Positions 27,279 through 36,047 of a stretch of 36,304 nucleotides of DNA are shown in pieces. This DNA comes from a virus (Duplodnaviria > Heunggongvirae > Uroviricota > Caudoviricetes), in the IMG/VR virus record IMGVR_UViG_2512047041_000001. One strand, given 5' to 3'. Positions within the stretch are counted from its first letter, which is position 1; every line of letters starts with the position of its first letter. Position numbers and translations under genes: made by a program. The notes beneath the pieces are model-generated. The model searched no databases, was not told the origin of the DNA, and worked only from the letters and a program-made list of their open reading frames with translations.

Positions 27279-30200
27279 ATGGGTACAGGCAGCAGTAAGG
27301 GGCATACCCCGCGCGAAGCGAAAGATAACCTGAAATCCACGCAGCTGTTGAGTGCGATTGATGCCATCAGCGAAGGGCCGATTGAAGGTCCGGTGGATGG
27401 ATTAAAAAGCGTGCTGCTGAACAGTACGCCGGTGCTGGACAGTGAGGGGAATACCAATATCTCCGGCGTCACGGTGGTGTTCCGGGCAGGTGAGCAGGAG
27501 CAGTCACCGCCGGAGGGATTTGAATCCTCCGGTTCCGAGACGGTGCTCGGTACGGAAGTGAAATATGAAACGCCGATCACCCGGACCATCACGTCGGCAA
27601 ACATCGACCGTCTGCGCTTTACCTTCGGTGTACAGGCACTGGTGGAAACCACCTCAAAGGGAGACAGGAATCCGTCGGAAGTCCGCCTGCTGGTTCAGAT
27701 ACAGCGTAACGGTGGCTGGGTGACGGAAAAAGACATCACCATTAAGGGCAAAACCACCTCGCAGTATCTGGCCTCGGTGGTGGTGGATAACCTGCCGCCG
27801 CGCCCGTTCAATATCCGGATGCGCAGGATGACGCCGGACAGCACCACAGACCAGCTGCAGAACAAAACGCTCTGGTCGTCATACACCGAGATCATCGATG
27901 TGAAACAGTGCTACCCGAACACGGCACTGGTCGGCGTACAGGTGGACTCGGAGCAGTTCGGCAGCCAGCAGGTGAGCCGTAATTATCATCTTCGCGGGCG
28001 CATTCTGCAGGTGCCGTCGAACTATAACCCGCAGACGCGACAATACAGCGGTATCTGGGACGGAACGTTAAAACCAGTATACAGCAACAACATGGCCTGG
28101 TGTCTGTGGGATATGCTGACCCACCCGCGCTACGGCATGGGGAAACGTCTTGGTGCGGCGGATGTGGACAAATGGGCGCTGTATGTCATCGGCCAGTACT
28201 GCGACCAGTCAGTGCCGGACGGCTTTGGCGGCACGGAGCCGCGCATCACCTGTAATGCGTACCTGACCACACAGCGCAAGGCGTGGGATGTGCTCAGTGA
28301 TTTCTGCTCGGCGATGCGCTGTATGCCGGTATGGAACGGGCAGACGCTGACGTTCGTGCAGGACCGACAGTCGGATAAGGTGTGGACCTATAACCGCAGT
28401 AATGTGGTGATGCCGGATGATGGCGCGCCGTTCCGCTACAGCTTCAGCGCCCTGAAGGACCGCCATAATGCCGTTGAGGTGAACTGGATTGACCCGGACA
28501 ACGGCTGGGAGACGGCGACAGAGCTTGTTGAAGATACGCAGGCCATTGCCCGTTACGGTCGTAATGTCACGAAGATGGATGCCTTTGGCTGTACCAGCCG
28601 GGGGCAGGCACACCGCGCCGGGCTGTGGCTGATTAAAACGGAACTGCTGGAAACGCAGACCGTGGATTTCAGCGTGGGCGCAGAAGGGCTTCGCCATGTG
28701 CCGGGCGATGTCATTGAAATCTGCGATGATGACTATGCCGGTATCAGCACCGGTGGTCGCGTGCTGGCGGTGAACAGCCAGACCCGGACGCTGACGCTCG
28801 ACCGTGAAATCACGCTGCCATCCTCCGGTACCACGCTGATAAGCCTGGTTGACGGAAGTGGCAATCCGGTCAGCGTGGAGGTTCAGTCCGTCACCGACGG
28901 CGTGAAGGTAAAAGTGAGCCGTGTTCCTGACGGTGTTGCTGAATACAGCGTATGGGGGCTGAAGCTGCCGACGCTGCGCCAGCGACTGTTCCGCTGCGTG
29001 AGTATCCGTGAGAACGACGACGGCACGTATGCCATCACCGCCGTGCAGCATGTGCCGGAAAAAGAGGCCATCGTGGATAACGGGGCGCACTTTGACGGCG
29101 AACAGAGTGGCACGGTGAATGGTGTCACGCCGCCAGCGGTGCAGCACCTGACCGCAGAAGTCACTGCAGACAGCGGGGAATATCAGGTGCTGGCGCGATG
29201 GGACACACCGAAGGTGGTGAAGGGCGTGAGCTTCCTGCTTCGCCTGACCGTGGCAGCGGATGACGGCAGTGAGCGGCTGGTCAGCACGGCCCGGACGACG
29301 GAAACCACATACCGCTTCACGCAACTGGCGCTGGGAAACTACAGGCTGACAGTCCGGGCGGCAAATGCCTGGGGGCAGCAGGGCGATCCGGCATCGGTAT
29401 CGTTCCGTATTGCCGCACCGGCAGCGCCGTCGCGGATTGAGCTGACGCCGGGCTATTTTCAGATAACCGCCACGCCCCATCTTGCCGTTTATGATCCGAC
29501 GGTACAGTTTGAGTTCTGGTTCTCGGAAAAGCGGATTGCGGATATCAGGCAGGTTGAAACCACAGCCCGCTATCTTGGCACGGCGCTGTACTGGATAGCT
29601 GCCAGTATCAATATCAAACCGGGCCATGATTATTATTTTTACATCCGCAGTGTGAACACCGTTGGCAAATCGGCATTTGTGGAGGCTGTTGGCCAGCCGA
29701 GTGATGATGCATCCGGCTATCTGGATTTTTTCAAAGGCGAGATAGGGAAAAGCCATCTGGCTCAGGAGCTGTGGACGCAGATTGATAACGGTCAGCTTGC
29801 GCCTGACCTGGCTGAAATCAGGACGTCCATTACGGATGTCAGCAATGAAATCACGCAGACCGTCAATAAGAAACTGGAAGACCAGAGTGCGGCAATTCAG
29901 CAGATACAGAAGGTTCAGGTTGATACAAATAATAACCTGAACAGCATGTGGGCTGTGAAGCTGCAGCAGATGCAGGACGGACGCCTTTATATCGCGGGTA
30001 TTGGTGCCGGTATTGAGAACACCCCTGACGGCATGCAGAGTCAGGTGCTGCTGGCGGCGGACAGGATTGCGATGGTTAATCCTGCGAATGGCAACACAAA
30101 GCCGATGTTTGTTGGTCAGGGCGATCAGATATTCATGAACGAAGTGTTCCTGAAATATCTGACGGCTCCCACCATTACCAGCGGCGGTAATCCTCCGGCA

Positions 30201-30758
30201 TTTTCCCTGACACCGGACGGGCGGCTGACGGCGAAAAATGCCGATATCAGCGGTAACGTGAATGCGAACTCCGGGACGCTCAACAACGTCACGATTAACG
30301 AGAACTGCCGGGTTCTGGGAAAACTGTCCGCGAACCAGATTGAAGGCGATCTCGTTAAAACAGTGGGTAAAGCTTTCCCCCGGGACTCCCGTGCACCGGA
30401 ACGGTGGCCATCAGGGACCATTACCGTCAGGATTTATGACGATCAGCCGTTTGACCGGCAGATTGTTATTCCGGCGGTGGCATTCAGCGGCGCTAAACAT
30501 GAGAGAGAGCATACTGATATTTACTCCTCATGCCGTCTGATAGTGCGGAAAAACGGTGCTGAAATTTATAACCGTACCGCGCTGGATAATACGCTGATTT
30601 ACAGTGGCGTTATTGATATGCCTGCCGGTCACGGTCACATGACGCTGGAGTTTTCGGTGTCAGCATGGCTGGTAAATGACTGGTATCCCACAGCAAGTAT
30701 CAGCGATTTGCTGGTTGTGGTGATGAAGAAAGCCACCGCAGGCATCAGTATCAGCTGA
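27279..30758 (+). CDS. J: Central tail fibre / host specificity protein J
   Basis: 1159 aa, lambda gpJ-like architecture and position. Confidence 0.9.
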
Positions 30759-30825: not shown

Positions 30826-31425
30826 ATGCGTAAATTATGTGCTGTTATTCTGTCCGCAGTAGTCTGGCTGGTTGCCGCTGGTACGCCAGCGAGCGCAGCA
30901 GAGCATCAGTCCACACTAAGCGCCGGGTATCTTCAGACCCATACTGATATGCCAGGCAGTGATGACCTGAAGGGCATTAACGTGAAATACCGTTATGAAT
31001 TTACGGACACGCTGGGGCTGGTGACGTCATTCAGTTATGCCAATGCCAAAGATGAGCAAAAAACGCATTACAGCGATACCCGCTGGCATGAAGATTCCGT
31101 GCGTAACCGCTGGTTCAGCATGATGGCGGGGCCATCTGTACGCGTGAATGAATGGTTCAGTGCTTATGCGATGGCAGGTGTGGCTTACAGCCGTGTTTCG
31201 ACGTTCTCCGGGGATTATCTCCGCGTAACTGACAACAAGGGGAAAACGCACGATGTGCTGACCGGAAGTGATGACGATCGCCACAGCAACACGTCTCTGG
31301 CGTGGGGAGCTGGCGTGCAGTTTAACCCGACCGAATCCGTGGCCATTGATATTGCTTATGAAGGCTCCGGCAGTGGCGACTGGCGCACTGACGGTTTCAT
31401 CGTGGGTGTCGGTTATAAGTTCTGA
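30826..31425 (+). CDS. lom: Lom outer-membrane beta-barrel protein (Ail/Lom/OmpX family)
   Basis: 199 aa with signal peptide and C-terminal aromatic residue (GYKF); matches remembered lambda Lom. Confidence 0.85.
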   Translation: MRKLCAVILSAVVWLVAAGTPASAAEHQSTLSAGYLQTHTDMPGSDDLKGINVKYRYEFTDTLGLVTSFSYANAKDEQKTHYSDTRWHEDSVRNRWFSMMAGPSVRVNEWFSAYAMAGVAYSRVSTFSGDYLRVTDNKGKTHDVLTGSDDDRHSNTSLAWGAGVQFNPTESVAIDIAYEGSGSGDWRTDGFIVGVGYKF

Positions 31426-31483: not shown

Positions 31484-33889
31484 GTGGATATGGCAGCAGT
31501 AAAAATCTCAGGTGTGCTGAAAGATGGTGCGGGAAAACCAATACAGAACTGCACTATTCAACTGAAGGCAAAGCGTAACAGCACCACGGTACTGGTGAAC
31601 ACGGTGGCCTCTGAAAATCCGGATGAAGCCGGGCGTTACAGCATGGATGTTGAGTATGGCCAGTACAGCGTTATCCTGCTTGTTGAAGGTTTTCCGCCTT
31701 CACATGCCGGAACCATTACCGTCTATGAAGGTTCCAGACCAGGTACGCTGAATGATTTTCTCGGTGCCATGACGGAAGATGATGTCATGCCGGAGGCATT
31801 GCGTCGTTTTGAGGAAATGGTGGAAGAAGCGGCACGCAACGCCGAAGCCGCCTCTCAGAGCGCAGCGGCGGCAAAGAAATCCGAAACTGCAGCGGCATCA
31901 TCGAAGAACGCGGCGAAAACCTCAGAAACGAATGCAGCTAATAGTGCACAGGCGGCAGCGACCTCACAGACTGCATCAGAAAACTCCGCGACAGCAGCCA
32001 AAAAATCAGAAACCAACGCGAAAAATAGCGAGACAGCCGCAAAGACGAGCGAAACCAACGCAAAGTCCAGCCAGACGGCAGCGAAGACCAGCGAAACGAA
32101 TGCCAAAGCCAGTGAAACTGCGGCAAAAAACAGCCAGGTTGCAGCAGCCCAAAGCGAGAGCGCGGCAGCCGGTTCTGCGACTTCAGCAACTGGATCAGCA
32201 ACTGCTGCGGCTAACAGCCAGAAAGCTGCGAAGACGAGTGAAACTAACGCAAAGTCCAGCCAGACGGCAGCGAAGACCAGCGAAACGAATGCCAAAGCCA
32301 GTGAAACTGCGGCGAAAAACAGTCAGGATGCAGCAGCCCAAAGCGAGAGTGCCGCAGCTGGTTCTGCAAGTGCGGCGGCTTCTTCTGCCTCTGCATCAGC
32401 CAACAGTCAAAAAGCTGCAAAAACCAGTGAAACCAACGCAAAGGCGAGCGAGACTGCGGCGGCTAACTCAGCGAAAGCATCGGCAGCAAGCCAGACGGCT
32501 GCAAAAGCAAGTGAAGACGCAGCCAGAGAGTATGCAAGCCAGGCTGCGGAGCCGTATAAACAAGTTTTGCAGCCGCTTCCCGATGTGTGGATACCGTTTA
32601 ACGATTCACTGGATATGATTACGGGCTTTTCGCCGTCATATAAAAAGATTGTTATTGGTGATGATGAAATAACGATGCCTGGCGATAAGGTTGTAAAGTT
32701 TAAACGCGCATCAACTGCCACATATATCAATAAATCAGGCGTATTTAGTGTTGCTAAAATTGATGAGCCACGATTTGAAAAAGAAGGTTTATTGATTGAA
32801 GGACAGCGCACTAACTATTTTGTTAAATCCAATATCCCCGCTGAATGGACGAGTACCAGCAATATCGATAAAACTAATAATGGTGTTGATGAATTTGGTT
32901 TTTCATATGCCAAAATGCGAACAAAAGATAATATGACAGGACAATCATCTGCACTTAGTCTGCATACATGCAGTGCATCCCGGGGGATTGATGTTAGTGG
33001 CGATAATAAGTATTGCACTGTTTCATGCAGGGTTAAAGCTCCTGATGGTCTTCGTTGTCGTTTGCGTTTTGAAAAATACGATGGGTCGGTTTATACATTT
33101 TTAGGAGATGCTTATTTAACTTTCGGAACTCTGATAATAGAAAAAACTGGCGGAGCAGCCAATAGAATAGCAGCTACTGCAACTAAAGATCCGGTTACAG
33201 GGTGGATTTTCTATGAGGCAACTATAGAAGCTGTTGAAGGTGAAACCTTAATTGGCGCAATGATTCAGTATGCGCCGAAAAAAGGTGGTGTAACTGAAGC
33301 GGGAGATTATATTTACCTTGCAACACCACAATTTGAAAACGGCGGATGTGCTTCATCTTTTGTTATTACGACAACTGTACCCGCAACCCGCTCCAGTGAT
33401 ATGGTGACGATCCCAACTGAAAATAATATCTATAATAGACCGCTTACGTGCCTGGTCGAGGTTAATAGAAATTGGGGCGATATTCCTCCTAATGTAGCAC
33501 CGCGTATTTTTGATTTTTCTGGTGTGCCACCTATTGAGTCAATTACATACGCTTTTAACACAACTGAGAAATATTACGGTCAGCTTTATATGCAAACTTA
33601 TAAAGCGTCGACAAGTACTTACGTTTCTAGTGTGTTTGCTGGTCGAACTGATGTTCGAAAATTCATTGGTGGTTTTAATATTTATTCTGATGGTACTAAA
33701 CGAGTAGTTTCTAACGGTGAGGCTACTAAAACCATGAAAACGGAGTGGACGGGCGTAAAAACACGGACCTTTATTCGAATTGGAGGTCAAGCCACATCGG
33801 GAACTCGTCATCTATTCGGCCATTTGAGAAATCTTCGTCTCTGGCATAAAGAATTAACTGATGCGCAAATGGGGGAGAGTATTAAATGA
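31484..33889 (+). CDS. stf: Side tail fibre Stf, mosaic: lambda-Stf-like N-terminus, tandem fibre repeats, and a low-GC C-terminal domain with LamG-like signature
   Basis: N-terminus MAAVKISGVLKDGAGKPIQNCTIQLKA as in lambda Stf; repeated AAKTSETNAK units; C-terminal GHLRNLRLWHKELTDAQM resembles the LamG-type motif. Confidence 0.8.
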   Translation: MDMAAVKISGVLKDGAGKPIQNCTIQLKAKRNSTTVLVNTVASENPDEAGRYSMDVEYGQYSVILLVEGFPPSHAGTITVYEGSRPGTLNDFLGAMTEDDVMPEALRRFEEMVEEAARNAEAASQSAAAAKKSETAAASSKNAAKTSETNAANSAQAAATSQTASENSATAAKKSETNAKNSETAAKTSETNAKSSQTAAKTSETNAKASETAAKNSQVAAAQSESAAAGSATSATGSATAAANSQKAAKTSETNAKSSQTAAKTSETNAKASETAAKNSQDAAAQSESAAAGSASAAASSASASANSQKAAKTSETNAKASETAAANSAKASAASQTAAKASEDAAREYASQAAEPYKQVLQPLPDVWIPFNDSLDMITGFSPSYKKIVIGDDEITMPGDKVVKFKRASTATYINKSGVFSVAKIDEPRFEKEGLLIEGQRTNYFVKSNIPAEWTSTSNIDKTNNGVDEFGFSYAKMRTKDNMTGQSSALSLHTCSASRGIDVSGDNKYCTVSCRVKAPDGLRCRLRFEKYDGSVYTFLGDAYLTFGTLIIEKTGGAANRIAATATKDPVTGWIFYEATIEAVEGETLIGAMIQYAPKKGGVTEAGDYIYLATPQFENGGCASSFVITTTVPATRSSDMVTIPTENNIYNRPLTCLVEVNRNWGDIPPNVAPRIFDFSGVPPIESITYAFNTTEKYYGQLYMQTYKASTSTYVSSVFAGRTDVRKFIGGFNIYSDGTKRVVSNGEATKTMKTEWTGVKTRTFIRIGGQATSGTRHLFGHLRNLRLWHKELTDAQMGESIK
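31990..32520 (+). repeat. Tandem direct repeats inside stf (about 180-bp units, with about 42-bp sub-repeats encoding ...AAKTSETNAKxSxT...)
   Basis: Near-identical segments around 32033-32140 and 32222-32330 read directly. Confidence 0.8.
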
Positions 33890-34167
33890 AAGATTTAACG
33901 CTCAAATTTGCAGACAGGGCCGACTTTTCGGCCTTTATGGAGAGTATTGGCTATTATGATGACGAGTCGATGCAGGATGATATTCTTATTGACGTGATAG
34001 GTAACGTGTACAAAGAAACCGGAGAACTGACTGAAGATGGCGAACCGGTATGTGTTAAGGAGGACGGATATTTTGTAAACGTGCGCATCATTAATGATGC
34101 AAAAAAATCGTCAATATTCGATAAATACGCGATTGTTGTTGAGCATCAACTTCGTGGCTGGATGTGA
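33886..34167 (+). CDS. Hypothetical acidic protein (93 aa), translationally coupled to stf
   Basis: ATGA overlap with the stf stop; low-GC; no recognisable family. Confidence 0.5.
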   Translation: MKDLTLKFADRADFSAFMESIGYYDDESMQDDILIDVIGNVYKETGELTEDGEPVCVKEDGYFVNVRIINDAKKSSIFDKYAIVVEHQLRGWM

Positions 34168-34176
34168 GGGAGACAA

Positions 34177-34881
34177 ATGGCTACATCGACAGTAATTCCA
34201 GGAGACATCACCACGTTAAAGGGAGATGTCAGTAAAGCCAAGGAAGATATTTCCTCAATTAACGGAAAAGTATCAACGCTTCAGACTGATATGACCAGTG
34301 CAAAGCAGGATATCAGCACCAGATACACAAAAACTGAAGTTGATAATAAGCTGAAAAACAAAGTGGAAGTGAACGATCTGGAAAGTGGTCGTTATGGTGG
34401 AGATTTTTACCCGCTGACTGGTCGTGAAGCGTTTTATTTGTGGGGATTGGGCACGACTACAGCGGCGGCAAACCTTTATCTTAATCCTGACCCCGCAATT
34501 TCGTCTGTACTGCGGTCCACATCGTCTATCCGCTATAAACATTCAGTAGAGACGATAGATTCGGAGCACGCCGATCTCATTTTCAGGATGCGCCCTGTGT
34601 GGTACAGGTCGCAATGCGAAAATGACAGGCGCGATTGGGGATTCTATGGATTGATTGCCGAGGAAGTAGGAGAAATTGCCCCTCAGTTTGTTCACTGGCG
34701 ACCAGCTAACGAGAATGATGCTCCTGAAGCTATTTCCAGCAATGGCCTTGTTGCCGAAGGTGTAATGTACGAACGTCTGGTTGTTCCACTGATTCACCAT
34801 ATCCAGAAACTGACTGAAAGAGTTGATGAACTTGAGTCAGAATTAAAGTTGTTATCAACTTCCCGAAGCGATATCGGATAA
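34177..34881 (+). CDS. Tail-fibre-like protein: coiled-coil N-terminus plus C-terminal intramolecular chaperone (peptidase S74-like) domain
   Basis: RBS GAGGGAG upstream; C-terminal segment SSIRYKHSVETID ... WGFYGLIAEEVGEIAPQFV ... VMYERLVVPLIHHIQKLTERVDELE fits the S74 chaperone pattern (Ser-x4-Lys, GLIAQEV-like core). Confidence 0.55.
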   Translation: MATSTVIPGDITTLKGDVSKAKEDISSINGKVSTLQTDMTSAKQDISTRYTKTEVDNKLKNKVEVNDLESGRYGGDFYPLTGREAFYLWGLGTTTAAANLYLNPDPAISSVLRSTSSIRYKHSVETIDSEHADLIFRMRPVWYRSQCENDRRDWGFYGLIAEEVGEIAPQFVHWRPANENDAPEAISSNGLVAEGVMYERLVVPLIHHIQKLTERVDELESELKLLSTSRSDIG

Positions 34882-34891
34882 AGGAGGAGTA

Positions 34892-35185
34892 ATGGATATA
34901 ACACCTTTCCTTCATGCACTTTGTGCTGTGGCTGCGCAGGTACTGGTTGGTCTTTTTACCGGAAACTGGGCTTACGGGGCGATAGCCGGTTGTACGTTCT
35001 TCATTGCGCGTGAACATACCCAGGCAGAATATCGCTGGATTGAAATGTTCGGGCATGGCAAGCGAATGAATATGCCGTGGTGGGGCGGTTTTGATCCGCG
35101 CGCGTGGGATGTGGCAAGTCTGATGGATTTTGCTGTGCCGGTGGTGGCGTGTCTGCTGGTCTGGCTGTTGGTTAATCGTGGGTGA
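34892..35185 (+). CDS. Small integral membrane protein (97 aa, 2-3 predicted transmembrane segments), unknown function
   Basis: RBS AAGGAGG upstream; hydrophobic segments LHALCAVAAQVLVGLF, AIAGCTFFIA, FAVPVVACLLVWLLV. Confidence 0.5.
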   Translation: MDITPFLHALCAVAAQVLVGLFTGNWAYGAIAGCTFFIAREHTQAEYRWIEMFGHGKRMNMPWWGGFDPRAWDVASLMDFAVPVVACLLVWLLVNRG

Positions 35186-35198
35186 AAAAAGGTGAGCT

Positions 35199-35323
35199 GT
35201 ATATGCAACGGAGGAAGAAACCTCGTTGCGGGAAGCCTGGAAGAAGTATCGGGTGTTGCTGAACCGTGTTGATACATCAACTGCACCTGATATTGAGTGG
35301 CCTACGAACCCTGTCAGGGAGTA
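35199..35323 (+). pseudogene. tfa: 3' remnant of a tail fibre assembly gene (tfa): the last ~40 codons only
   Basis: Translation ...[38 protein letters not shown] matches the conserved Tfa C-terminus; in-frame stop directly upstream. Confidence 0.7.
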
Positions 35324-35378
35324 ATCATTGGGATTATGCCGCAGCACGTCTTAAGCAAGAACGTGCTGCGGTTGGATG

Positions 35379-36047
35379 CTATTTTTTCCCTGAAGCGGAA
35401 AACATTACTACAGTACCTTGAACCTTGGTTTTAACATTCTCGAAATGCTCTGAGAGTATATGTGTTAAGCCTTCTTCGGAATCTTTTGTGTTTGAAAAGA
35501 TGCCTTTCTGATTGTAAATGCGCATCAGTTTTTGACCGAAGCTATTGTGCACAACTCCATCGCCAAGAATTGTGGCTCCGTATAGAGTTCCATCGTCAGT
35601 TAAGGCCTGCGCCGCATTGCGTATTACACAGCTTTTTGTAGATATATTTCCAGGCAGGCAGTGAAGAAGGTAAAACATGGAAATGGAATCAAATTGACCA
35701 TGTAACGCCGCGGGATAAGGTTCAAAAACATCATGGCTAATTTTATGTTTAATTTTTGATTCCCCAGCCCTTGTAGATGCCGCGTTCAGGCTAGCTTCGT
35801 TCAAATCCATTAAAGATATCAGACTACTCTCAGGTACGTGAGTAAGGTAAAACCCAGTTCCAACACCAATATCCAGATGGTTGTTACCTAAATGTTCCAG
35901 AAAGTGTGGAAGAAGGTGTTCCTTTGTAGGACATCCCCATGCAAGCCGATTTGATACTCCCAAAACCCACCAGTCATAAAGCTTTAGGGTAAGTGGTGTG
36001 TAAATTTTAGCCCCATCATCTGTGTTTTTTTTCATTAATTTCACCAT
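35379..36047 (-). CDS. ybcY: Class I SAM-dependent methyltransferase (YbcY-like), low-GC
   Basis: Motif I LDIGVGTGFY, acidic beta-2 end (LMDLN), motif FDSISMFYLLHCLPG; no DPPY/NPPY DNA-methyltransferase motif; flanked by tfa fragments as remembered for DLP12. Confidence 0.65.
   Translation of the reverse strand: MVKLMKKNTDDGAKIYTPLTLKLYDWWVLGVSNRLAWGCPTKEHLLPHFLEHLGNNHLDIGVGTGFYLTHVPESSLISLMDLNEASLNAASTRAGESKIKHKISHDVFEPYPAALHGQFDSISMFYLLHCLPGNISTKSCVIRNAAQALTDDGTLYGATILGDGVVHNSFGQKLMRIYNQKGIFSNTKDSEEGLTHILSEHFENVKTKVQGTVVMFSASGKK

Follow-up and report, generated by a model that had tools for sequence, protein, structure and literature searches.

We consider it rather probable that a short gene in the side-tail-fibre region of a lambdoid prophage encodes a minimal distal or accessory side-fibre subunit, one that trimerises, is cleaved and attaches through an N-terminal anchor in the way proposed below. 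The gene lies in IMG/VR virus record IMGVR_UViG_2512047041_000001, a 36,304-nucleotide (nt) stretch of DNA from a member of the Caudoviricetes, the whole of which we call the window. The open reading frame (ORF), referred to here as the target, occupies 34177-34881 on the + strand and comprises an ATG start, 234 codons and a stop; it is present as originally described, with a translation that agrees with the peptide quoted then. On sequence grounds, the target is the shortest common allele of an exchangeable distal fibre module. Direct support comes for its domain identity, its catalytic dyad, its position in a gene cassette, the anchor that it shares with other cassette proteins, the exchange of alleles, purifying selection, and its dispensability in some related phages.

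The C-terminal part of the protein, residues 116-234 (34522-34878, +; 13.8 kDa), is identified by Pfam, AlphaFold2 and Foldseek as an intramolecular chaperone of the Peptidase_S74 type. The Pfam search called for by the original prediction aligned residues 116-172 with positions 1-57 of the 58-position profile PF13884 (E = 4.6e-6), at 27.3 bits against a gathering score of 22. In an AlphaFold2 monomer model made from a 40-sequence alignment, residues 121-230 have a predicted local distance difference test score (pLDDT) of ~82-96 and include a long C-terminal helix at 198-232. Meaningful Foldseek matches in the PDB were limited to three chaperones of this type: the ICA (auto-processing intramolecular chaperone) domain of MyRF (7dc3; E = 6.6e-5, probability 1.00), the GA-1 chaperone (3gud; probability 0.96) and the endosialidase chaperone (3gw6; probability 0.72). 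With a Pfam score above threshold, an invariant dyad and a matching predicted fold, the assignment of the C-terminal half to this family held, and on every testable feature of sequence and model the target is a Peptidase S74 family member.

The predicted autocleavage site and its catalytic dyad fall at 34522-34539 (+), with Ser116 (34522-34524) as nucleophile and Lys121 (34537-34539) as base. This is the 'SSIRYK' motif that had been named as the likely cleavage site, and its S-x4-K dyad is invariant in alignments of 27 and of 40 homologues. Ser116 corresponds to position 1 of the Pfam S74 profile, and the site aligns with the 'ADLRAK' cleavage motif of MyRF in 7dc3. By analogy, the cut would fall between Thr115 and Ser116. 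The predicted products are a mature chain of 115 residues (12.4 kDa) and a released domain of 13.8 kDa, so that the mature protein would be as small as first supposed. S74 domains are described as intramolecular chaperones that fold the chain to which they belong (Schulz et al. 2010, as cited in PMC12090712). Endosialidase K1F (3gw6), the GA-1 neck appendage (3gud) and the MyRF ICA domain (7dc3) resemble the target in PF13884, in the Ser/Lys spacing and in predicted fold, but there the chaperone follows a large enzymatic or beta-helical body, whereas the passenger in the target, at only 115 residues, is close to the smallest conceivable S74 substrate.

Ahead of the chaperone, the protein begins with an anchor, residues 1-15 (MATSTVIPGDITTLK; 34177-34221, +), which has the consensus M-[AV]-T-x-T-x-I-P-x-D-I-x-x-L-K. 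Residues 1-10 have a pLDDT of ~54, and the anchor is therefore predicted to be unstructured on its own. The end of the anchor runs into a heptad coiled coil, residues ~7-48 (34195-34320, +), with core positions I11, L14, V18, A21, I25, I28, V32, L35, M39, A42 and I46. All 28-residue windows starting at residues 7-21 have a heptad score of 1.0, AlphaFold2 places a helix at 12-48 (pLDDT 79-87), and the segment is weakly similar to the coiled coil of the P22 gp26 needle (4lin, E = 0.006). Residues 49-69 (34321-34383, +) carry the fibre-shaft motif YTKTEVDNKL on short helices, modelled at 52-62 and 65-69, and align with the repeated 'YTKTEVDSAL' units of the L-shaped fibre LtfA of phage DT57C.

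The last segment before the chaperone is a beta 'stub', residues 70-115 (34384-34521, +), with four short predicted strands (72-115; pLDDT <50). It contains the conserved motif TTT..AN.Y.[DN]P.....V.RST, in which T94, N99 and R113 are invariant or nearly so in the 27- and 40-sequence alignments, and it aligns with the last part of LtfA ahead of the chaperone domain of that protein. We infer that the stub is probably a short trimeric beta-helix, which would become the distal tip after cleavage; a segment able to fold only as an interleaved trimer would be expected to show the low pLDDT seen at 72-115. The mature part had been described as about 120 residues of coiled coil. This description does not hold, as perfect heptads are found only at ~7-48, about 45-60 residues are helical and 45 are probably beta. 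The companion statement that there is no obvious receptor-binding domain does hold, none being recognisable in the mature part.

The target is the third gene of a cassette. The first is the side tail fibre gene stf (31484-33889, +), whose 801-aa product has a phage_tail_N start (Pfam E = 6e-67), an Ala-rich coiled coil and a C-terminal lectin-like module, and is presumed to be the proximal fibre. The second is a gene for a 93-amino-acid (aa) protein of family phrog_1361 (33886-34167, +). The same order, of a fibre with a lectin-like C-terminal module, then a protein of ~93 aa, then an anchor-bearing protein, is found in at least four groups of tailed phages. Carriers include the lambdoid phages PhiR49_1 and 2G7b, the Queuovirinae Nonagvirus ESCO3 and Seuratvirus VogelGryff, the Drexlerviridae PeterMerian and KarlJaspers, the T5-like phage IrisVonRoten and the Dhillonvirus KarlBarth. 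At the sequence level the cassette protein is recognised by its position behind a phrog_1361 gene and by the N-terminal motif, and the target has both.

Third genes span 221-586 aa and have the anchor in common, while their bodies are unrelated. Besides the target they include a 345/346-aa allele, the 351-aa protein of ESCO3, the 574-aa Gp24 of IrisVonRoten, a protein of VogelGryff annotated with 388 aa, and that of KarlBarth. Anchor residues T3, T5, I7, P8, D10, I11, L14 and K15 are invariant among the lambdoid, T1-like, T5-like and Seuratvirus proteins (five groups aligned). The motif also occurs in KarlBarth, whose third gene is without S74. The KarlBarth gene (locus L091, 4270-5149) is split in the annotation into two overlapping ORFs (98 aa and 196 aa), which reflects either a frameshift in the gene or a distal fibre that is naturally in two parts and has a different tip.

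Alleles of the third gene were surveyed in 77 IMG/VR prophage loci whose 93-aa gene is at least 90% identical to that of the window. In all 77, where readable, the next gene lies 9 nt downstream and carries the anchor. It is either a short allele of 227-234 aa (~49 complete) or a long allele of 345-346 aa (22 complete and six truncated or cut by the contig end). Compared with the DNA of 2G7b, the window is at least 80% (mostly at least 90%) identical from 33886 to ~34215, a stretch that includes the 93-aa gene and reaches 13-15 codons into the target; identity is below 70% over the remainder of the target and at least 93% again from 34901. Because identity drops just past the anchor codons, the exchanged unit is exactly everything after the anchor.

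The substitution pattern marks the target as a real gene under purifying selection and not as debris. The 234-aa allele is represented by 23 distinct nucleotide versions, among which the ratio of non-synonymous to synonymous substitution rates (dN/dS) is 0.16 overall, with 0.25 for residues 1-70, 0.13 for residues 71-115 and 0.12 for residues 116-234. The gene is present in 745 of 5426 complete Escherichia coli genomes, with up to three copies per genome. Virulent T1-like phages keep orthologues of 221-231 aa, with 55-62% identity across more than 90% of the length. Damaged copies are rare: the first 80 IMG/VR loci held one of 157 aa (short allele) and one of 227 aa (long allele), and at least 46 of the 49 complete short-allele copies there are full length, at 229-234 aa.

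Spacing and signals in the DNA suggest that the target is expressed with its neighbours. It lies 9 nt after the 93-aa gene and 10 nt before a 97-aa gene that is itself preceded by an AGGAGG site. A Shine-Dalgarno-like GAGGGAG (34166-34172, +) stands 4 nt 5' of the ATG and overlaps the TGA stop of the 93-aa gene, which suggests translational coupling. No promoter-like or terminator-like sites were found on the + strand within 33700-35500, and the idea of the target as an independent transcription unit was rejected on that ground. With the tight spacing, the overlapping Shine-Dalgarno site and this lack of internal signals, stf and the three genes behind it look as if they are transcribed together and coupled in translation. 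The original prediction had presented the protein as unusually short and standalone. Its short size and its separate ORF are borne out; its supposed oddity is not, given a common, conserved allele with tightly spaced neighbours. The target stands out only in its minimal size and in having no receptor-binding body.

An exhaustive HMMER search of 1.84 billion representatives (E <= 0.001) returned 3497 relatives, and the PHROG matches of the target are tail-fibre families. The closest relative, P0001, is 97% identical, and its 90%-identity cluster has 2928 member sequences. About 27 of the best 150 library representatives are shorter than 300 aa, some of them being fragments. One representative, P0234 (116 aa), is 100% identical to residues 1-116 and ends beside the predicted cleavage site; this is most probably a coincidence, with P0234 being a contig-end or frameshift fragment.

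The closest long relatives, P0235 (735 aa), P0241 (1243 aa) and P0242 (1025 aa), end in a region equivalent to residues ~25-37 to 224-234 of the target, at 49-59% identity. P0235 has the same phage_tail_N start as Stf of the window, and its C-terminal end is 59% identical to residues 37-224. In contrast to the cassette, single-chain lambdoid side fibres of this kind are one polypeptide without an anchor and have a gp12-like domain in place of the lectin-like module. Such fibres carry the module at their C-terminus, which shows that it may be fused as well as separate and argues strongly for the mature part of the target being fibre substance at the distal end. The earlier suggestion that the protein might be unrelated to tails is thus very unlikely, given also that the gene stands in the fibre locus of at least four groups of tailed phages.

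Among proteins of known structure, the sole significant sequence match is DT57C LtfA (8hqz chain d; E = 7e-7 with a single sequence, 4.7e-8 with a profile). The ~175 residues at the C-terminal end take part in the alignment, the S-x4-K site and the chaperone domain among them, and both proteins have the YTKTEVD shaft motif. T5 pb1 and LtfA exceed 1000 residues and have their own N-terminal tail attachment and a defined receptor-binding tip, whereas the target is a separate 234-aa product. The pb1 chaperone domain is reported to be lost by autoproteolysis (Garcia-Doval et al. 2015, as cited in PMC11990801).

A close known system is that of IrisVonRoten (T5-like, Bas32), where Gp22, Gp23 and Gp24 have the gene order of the window. 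Gp22 ends in a homologous lectin-like module, the 92-aa second protein is 37% identical to the 93-aa protein, and Gp24 starts with MVTKTVIPTDITKLK and ends in Peptidase_S74. An AlphaFold-Multimer prediction presents Gp24 as a distal fibre on the proximal Gp22, whose lectin-like module, called 'galectin-like' there, protrudes (PMC11990801). Gp24 has 574 aa and two predicted receptor-binding domains in a T shape, while in the target the anchor is joined to the chaperone by no more than a coiled coil and a beta segment of 45 residues. True orthologues are the 231-aa proteins of the Drexlerviridae PeterMerian, KarlJaspers, Jahat_MG145 and SECphi27, among others, with the same anchor, cassette position and architecture; they differ in having fewer or different heptads and in belonging to virulent genomes. 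GenBank labels these orthologues 'chaperone of endosialidase' or 'putative lateral tail fiber chaperone', and the Prokaryotic Genome Annotation Pipeline (PGAP) labels the target 'tail fiber domain-containing protein' (WP_000235984.1). The target is thus already in databases under generic or misleading names, and its longer cousins are already modelled as distal fibres. The tail needle P22 gp26 offers an analogy only, as a short trimeric coiled-coil rod with an N-terminal docking segment; its homology to the target is limited to coiled-coil periodicity, and gp26 is without S74 and plugs the tail channel, whereas the target is encoded in a side-fibre locus.

From these comparisons we infer trimerisation, cleavage, incorporation into the virion, an attachment partner and any role with respect to a receptor, as follows. 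The late operon would supply the target along with Stf and the 93-aa protein. Its C-terminal chaperone (116-234) would bring three chains into register and template first the beta segment (70-115) and then the coiled coil (~7-48), in the C-to-N direction. Once assembled, the chaperone would cleave itself off between Thr115 and Ser116 by means of Ser116 and Lys121. The remaining trimer (3 x 12.4 kDa) would be a coiled-coil rod with a small beta tip, the heptad segment measuring perhaps ~6 nm, as estimated at ~0.15 nm per residue. It would join the fibre through the 15-residue anchor, the partner being a conserved surface of Stf, the 93-aa protein or both, and would serve on the virion as an extension or a branch of the lectin-tipped Stf. 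The original prediction had offered several roles for the small stalk. A piece that docks onto Stf is the one we favour, since the gene always follows stf and the 93-aa gene and its first 15 residues are common to longer distal fibres.

Several observations weigh against this proposal. In Lambda_2G7a and ev243 the 93-aa gene is followed directly by the 97-aa gene, with no third gene, and the same is true of 45 prophage loci; in the rV5-like phage CarlMeissner, the fibre module is present along with a small-protein homologue of 110 aa, but an anchor-bearing gene is lacking. The target is therefore dispensable for at least some related phages. Among ~165 loci, an anchor-bearing gene follows the window-type 93-aa gene in 106 of 106 cases and the 2G7a-type gene in 0 of 47. 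This association could be plain linkage; it is also compatible with functional coupling of the 93-aa and third proteins, and we do not count it as evidence for a docking partner. Stf C-terminal type and short or long allele showed no co-variation, at least four types assorting freely, and co-variation was rejected as a sign of a docking interface. The Stf junction motif QPLPDVWIPFNDSLDMITGF was likewise rejected as specific to third-gene carriers, being equally present in 2G7a and ev243. Given free assortment and a junction motif equally conserved where the third gene is absent, the data single out no specific docking site. Nor can a receptor-binding domain be recognised in the mature part. 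The trimer and its beta-helix tip are assumptions of the proposal, since residues 60-113, which lie between the heptads and the chaperone, have a pLDDT below 50 in what is a monomer model. Literature searches for the target or a close orthologue found no virion proteomics, cleavage assay or knockout; PMC5238451 concerns a different, 559-aa S74 fibre, and neither PMC11338833 nor PMC12090712 bears on the family in this respect.

A more novel reading deserves mention as a tentative idea, with perhaps one chance in several of being right. The short allele may be a 'blank' distal module, made of anchor, spacer coiled coil and chaperone, with no receptor binding of its own, that occupies or caps the docking site on the lectin-tipped Stf or nucleates the register of the Stf trimer from its far end. 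If so, phages would change their fibres from single specificity (short third gene or none) to dual specificity (the 346-aa or T-shaped form), and back, through the swap of one segment, and the target would be the smallest natural S74 substrate, at 115 residues.

Of the rivals to the distal-subunit proposal, the likeliest, though we think it improbable, is an independent short fibre: a trimer attached elsewhere than on Stf, for example at the tail tip, with the shared N-terminus as the socket for that site. It would accord with the finding that no feature of Stf co-varies with presence of the gene, and with the weak coiled-coil similarity to P22 gp26 and to phrog_1219, 'tail needle protein'. 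However, the cassette moves as a unit, fibre module and 93-aa gene along with the third gene, between phages with unrelated tail tips (lambdoid, T1-like, T5-like and Queuovirinae), which makes it more parsimonious to place the partner inside the cassette. The third gene is also tied to one subtype of the 93-aa gene in E. coli prophages, and the IrisVonRoten counterpart is modelled on the proximal fibre.

Slightly less probable still is a trans-acting assembly factor, which would help Stf to trimerise or fold, for example by nucleating its coiled coil from the C-terminal end via the anchor, and then be released. The annotation of the PeterMerian, KarlJaspers and VogelGryff orthologues as 'putative lateral tail fiber chaperone' would fit, as would a mature part without a receptor-binding domain, and the short allele pairs with at least four Stf C-terminal types as a generic helper would. 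The label, for which PMC8594841 gave no evidence, most probably repeats the Pfam name 'Chaperone of endosialidase', and S74 is known to fold the chain to which it belongs. Neither a Tfa-type (Caudo_TAP) domain nor a resemblance to lambda Tfa or Mu gpU was found for the target in Pfam, NCBIfam or PHROGs. Single-chain fibres end in the same module, which is plainly a fibre part there. Homologous Stf and 93-aa genes occur without any third gene in Lambda_2G7a, in ev243 and in 45 prophage loci; assembly of Stf therefore does not need the target.

A functionless C-terminal leftover of an older, long side fibre displaced by the present stf cassette might be suspected from phrog_3299, which aligns the whole target with positions 1147-1384 of its 1385-column profile, and from a true Tfa fossil nearby, but this very remote reading was rejected on the dN/dS of 0.16, in which the mature part is also constrained, on the target's own ATG and Shine-Dalgarno site, on an N-terminus that is conserved across phage groups and absent from long fibres, on the full-length state of nearly all complete short copies, and on the retention of orthologues in virulent phages with compact genomes.

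The surroundings of the target are the late region of a lambdoid prophage, in the order J (27279-30758), Lom (30826-31425), Stf, the 93-aa ORF, the target and the 97-aa ORF. The target is 100% identical to a segment of E. coli IAI39 (NC_011750.1, 560414-561118) that adjoins ompT. In RefSeq, stf of IAI39 (locus L201, 814-3213) is given as two pseudogene fragments plus small ORFs, while in the window it is one uninterrupted ORF of 801 codons; the Ala-rich repeats (KTSETNAK...) have probably misled the annotation here. The lectin-like module of Stf, residues ~363-801 (32570-33886, +), comprises ~440 residues and is conserved across phage groups. NCBIfam finds GTA_spike_fiber ('GTA head spike fiber domain') at residues 437-637, and there is a weak concanavalin A (ConA)/LamG-like signal, with a Laminin_G_3 match below threshold. 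Its edges, QPLPDVWIPFNDSLDMITGF... and ...IRIGGQ..G.RHLFGH.RN.R.WHK.LTD, are highly conserved and its middle is hypervariable, giving at least four C-terminal types, 40-75% identical, among E. coli prophages. This is the pattern that would be expected in the sequence of a lectin-like receptor-binding domain.

Downstream, the next gene of the operon (34892-35185, +) encodes the 97-aa protein, a predicted membrane protein of family phrog_1443, and delimits the exchangeable segment on the right. This gene may be a moron, with a function such as exclusion or surface modification. The Tfa C-terminal fossil, the sole Tfa sequence of the region, follows at ~35196-35325 (+), lacks a start codon, and is annotated by PGAP in IAI39 as an incomplete 'tail fiber assembly protein'; its presence suggests an earlier stf-tfa pair whose place the present cassette has taken. 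Close behind the fibre operon, on the - strand at 35379-36047, is a YbcY-like class I S-adenosylmethionine-dependent methyltransferase (phrog_2132), whose position is conserved in PhiR49_1, 2G7b and ev243.

The recognition of a 15-residue anchor joined to a freely exchangeable body accounts for the misleading 'chaperone' labels in GenBank and offers a ready site at which engineered distal fibre modules could be spliced. Being compact and probably soluble, the 234-aa form is a model for folding and release of a minimal trimeric passenger by S74. The E. coli surface glycans to which a phage can cling are largely determined by its side fibres, and about one-seventh of the complete genomes of that species carry the cassette, as do several groups of phages that are used in therapy collections. 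Current understanding is not overturned; rather, the picture of a proximal and a distal fibre, proposed earlier for T5-like phages, would be extended to lambdoid prophages.

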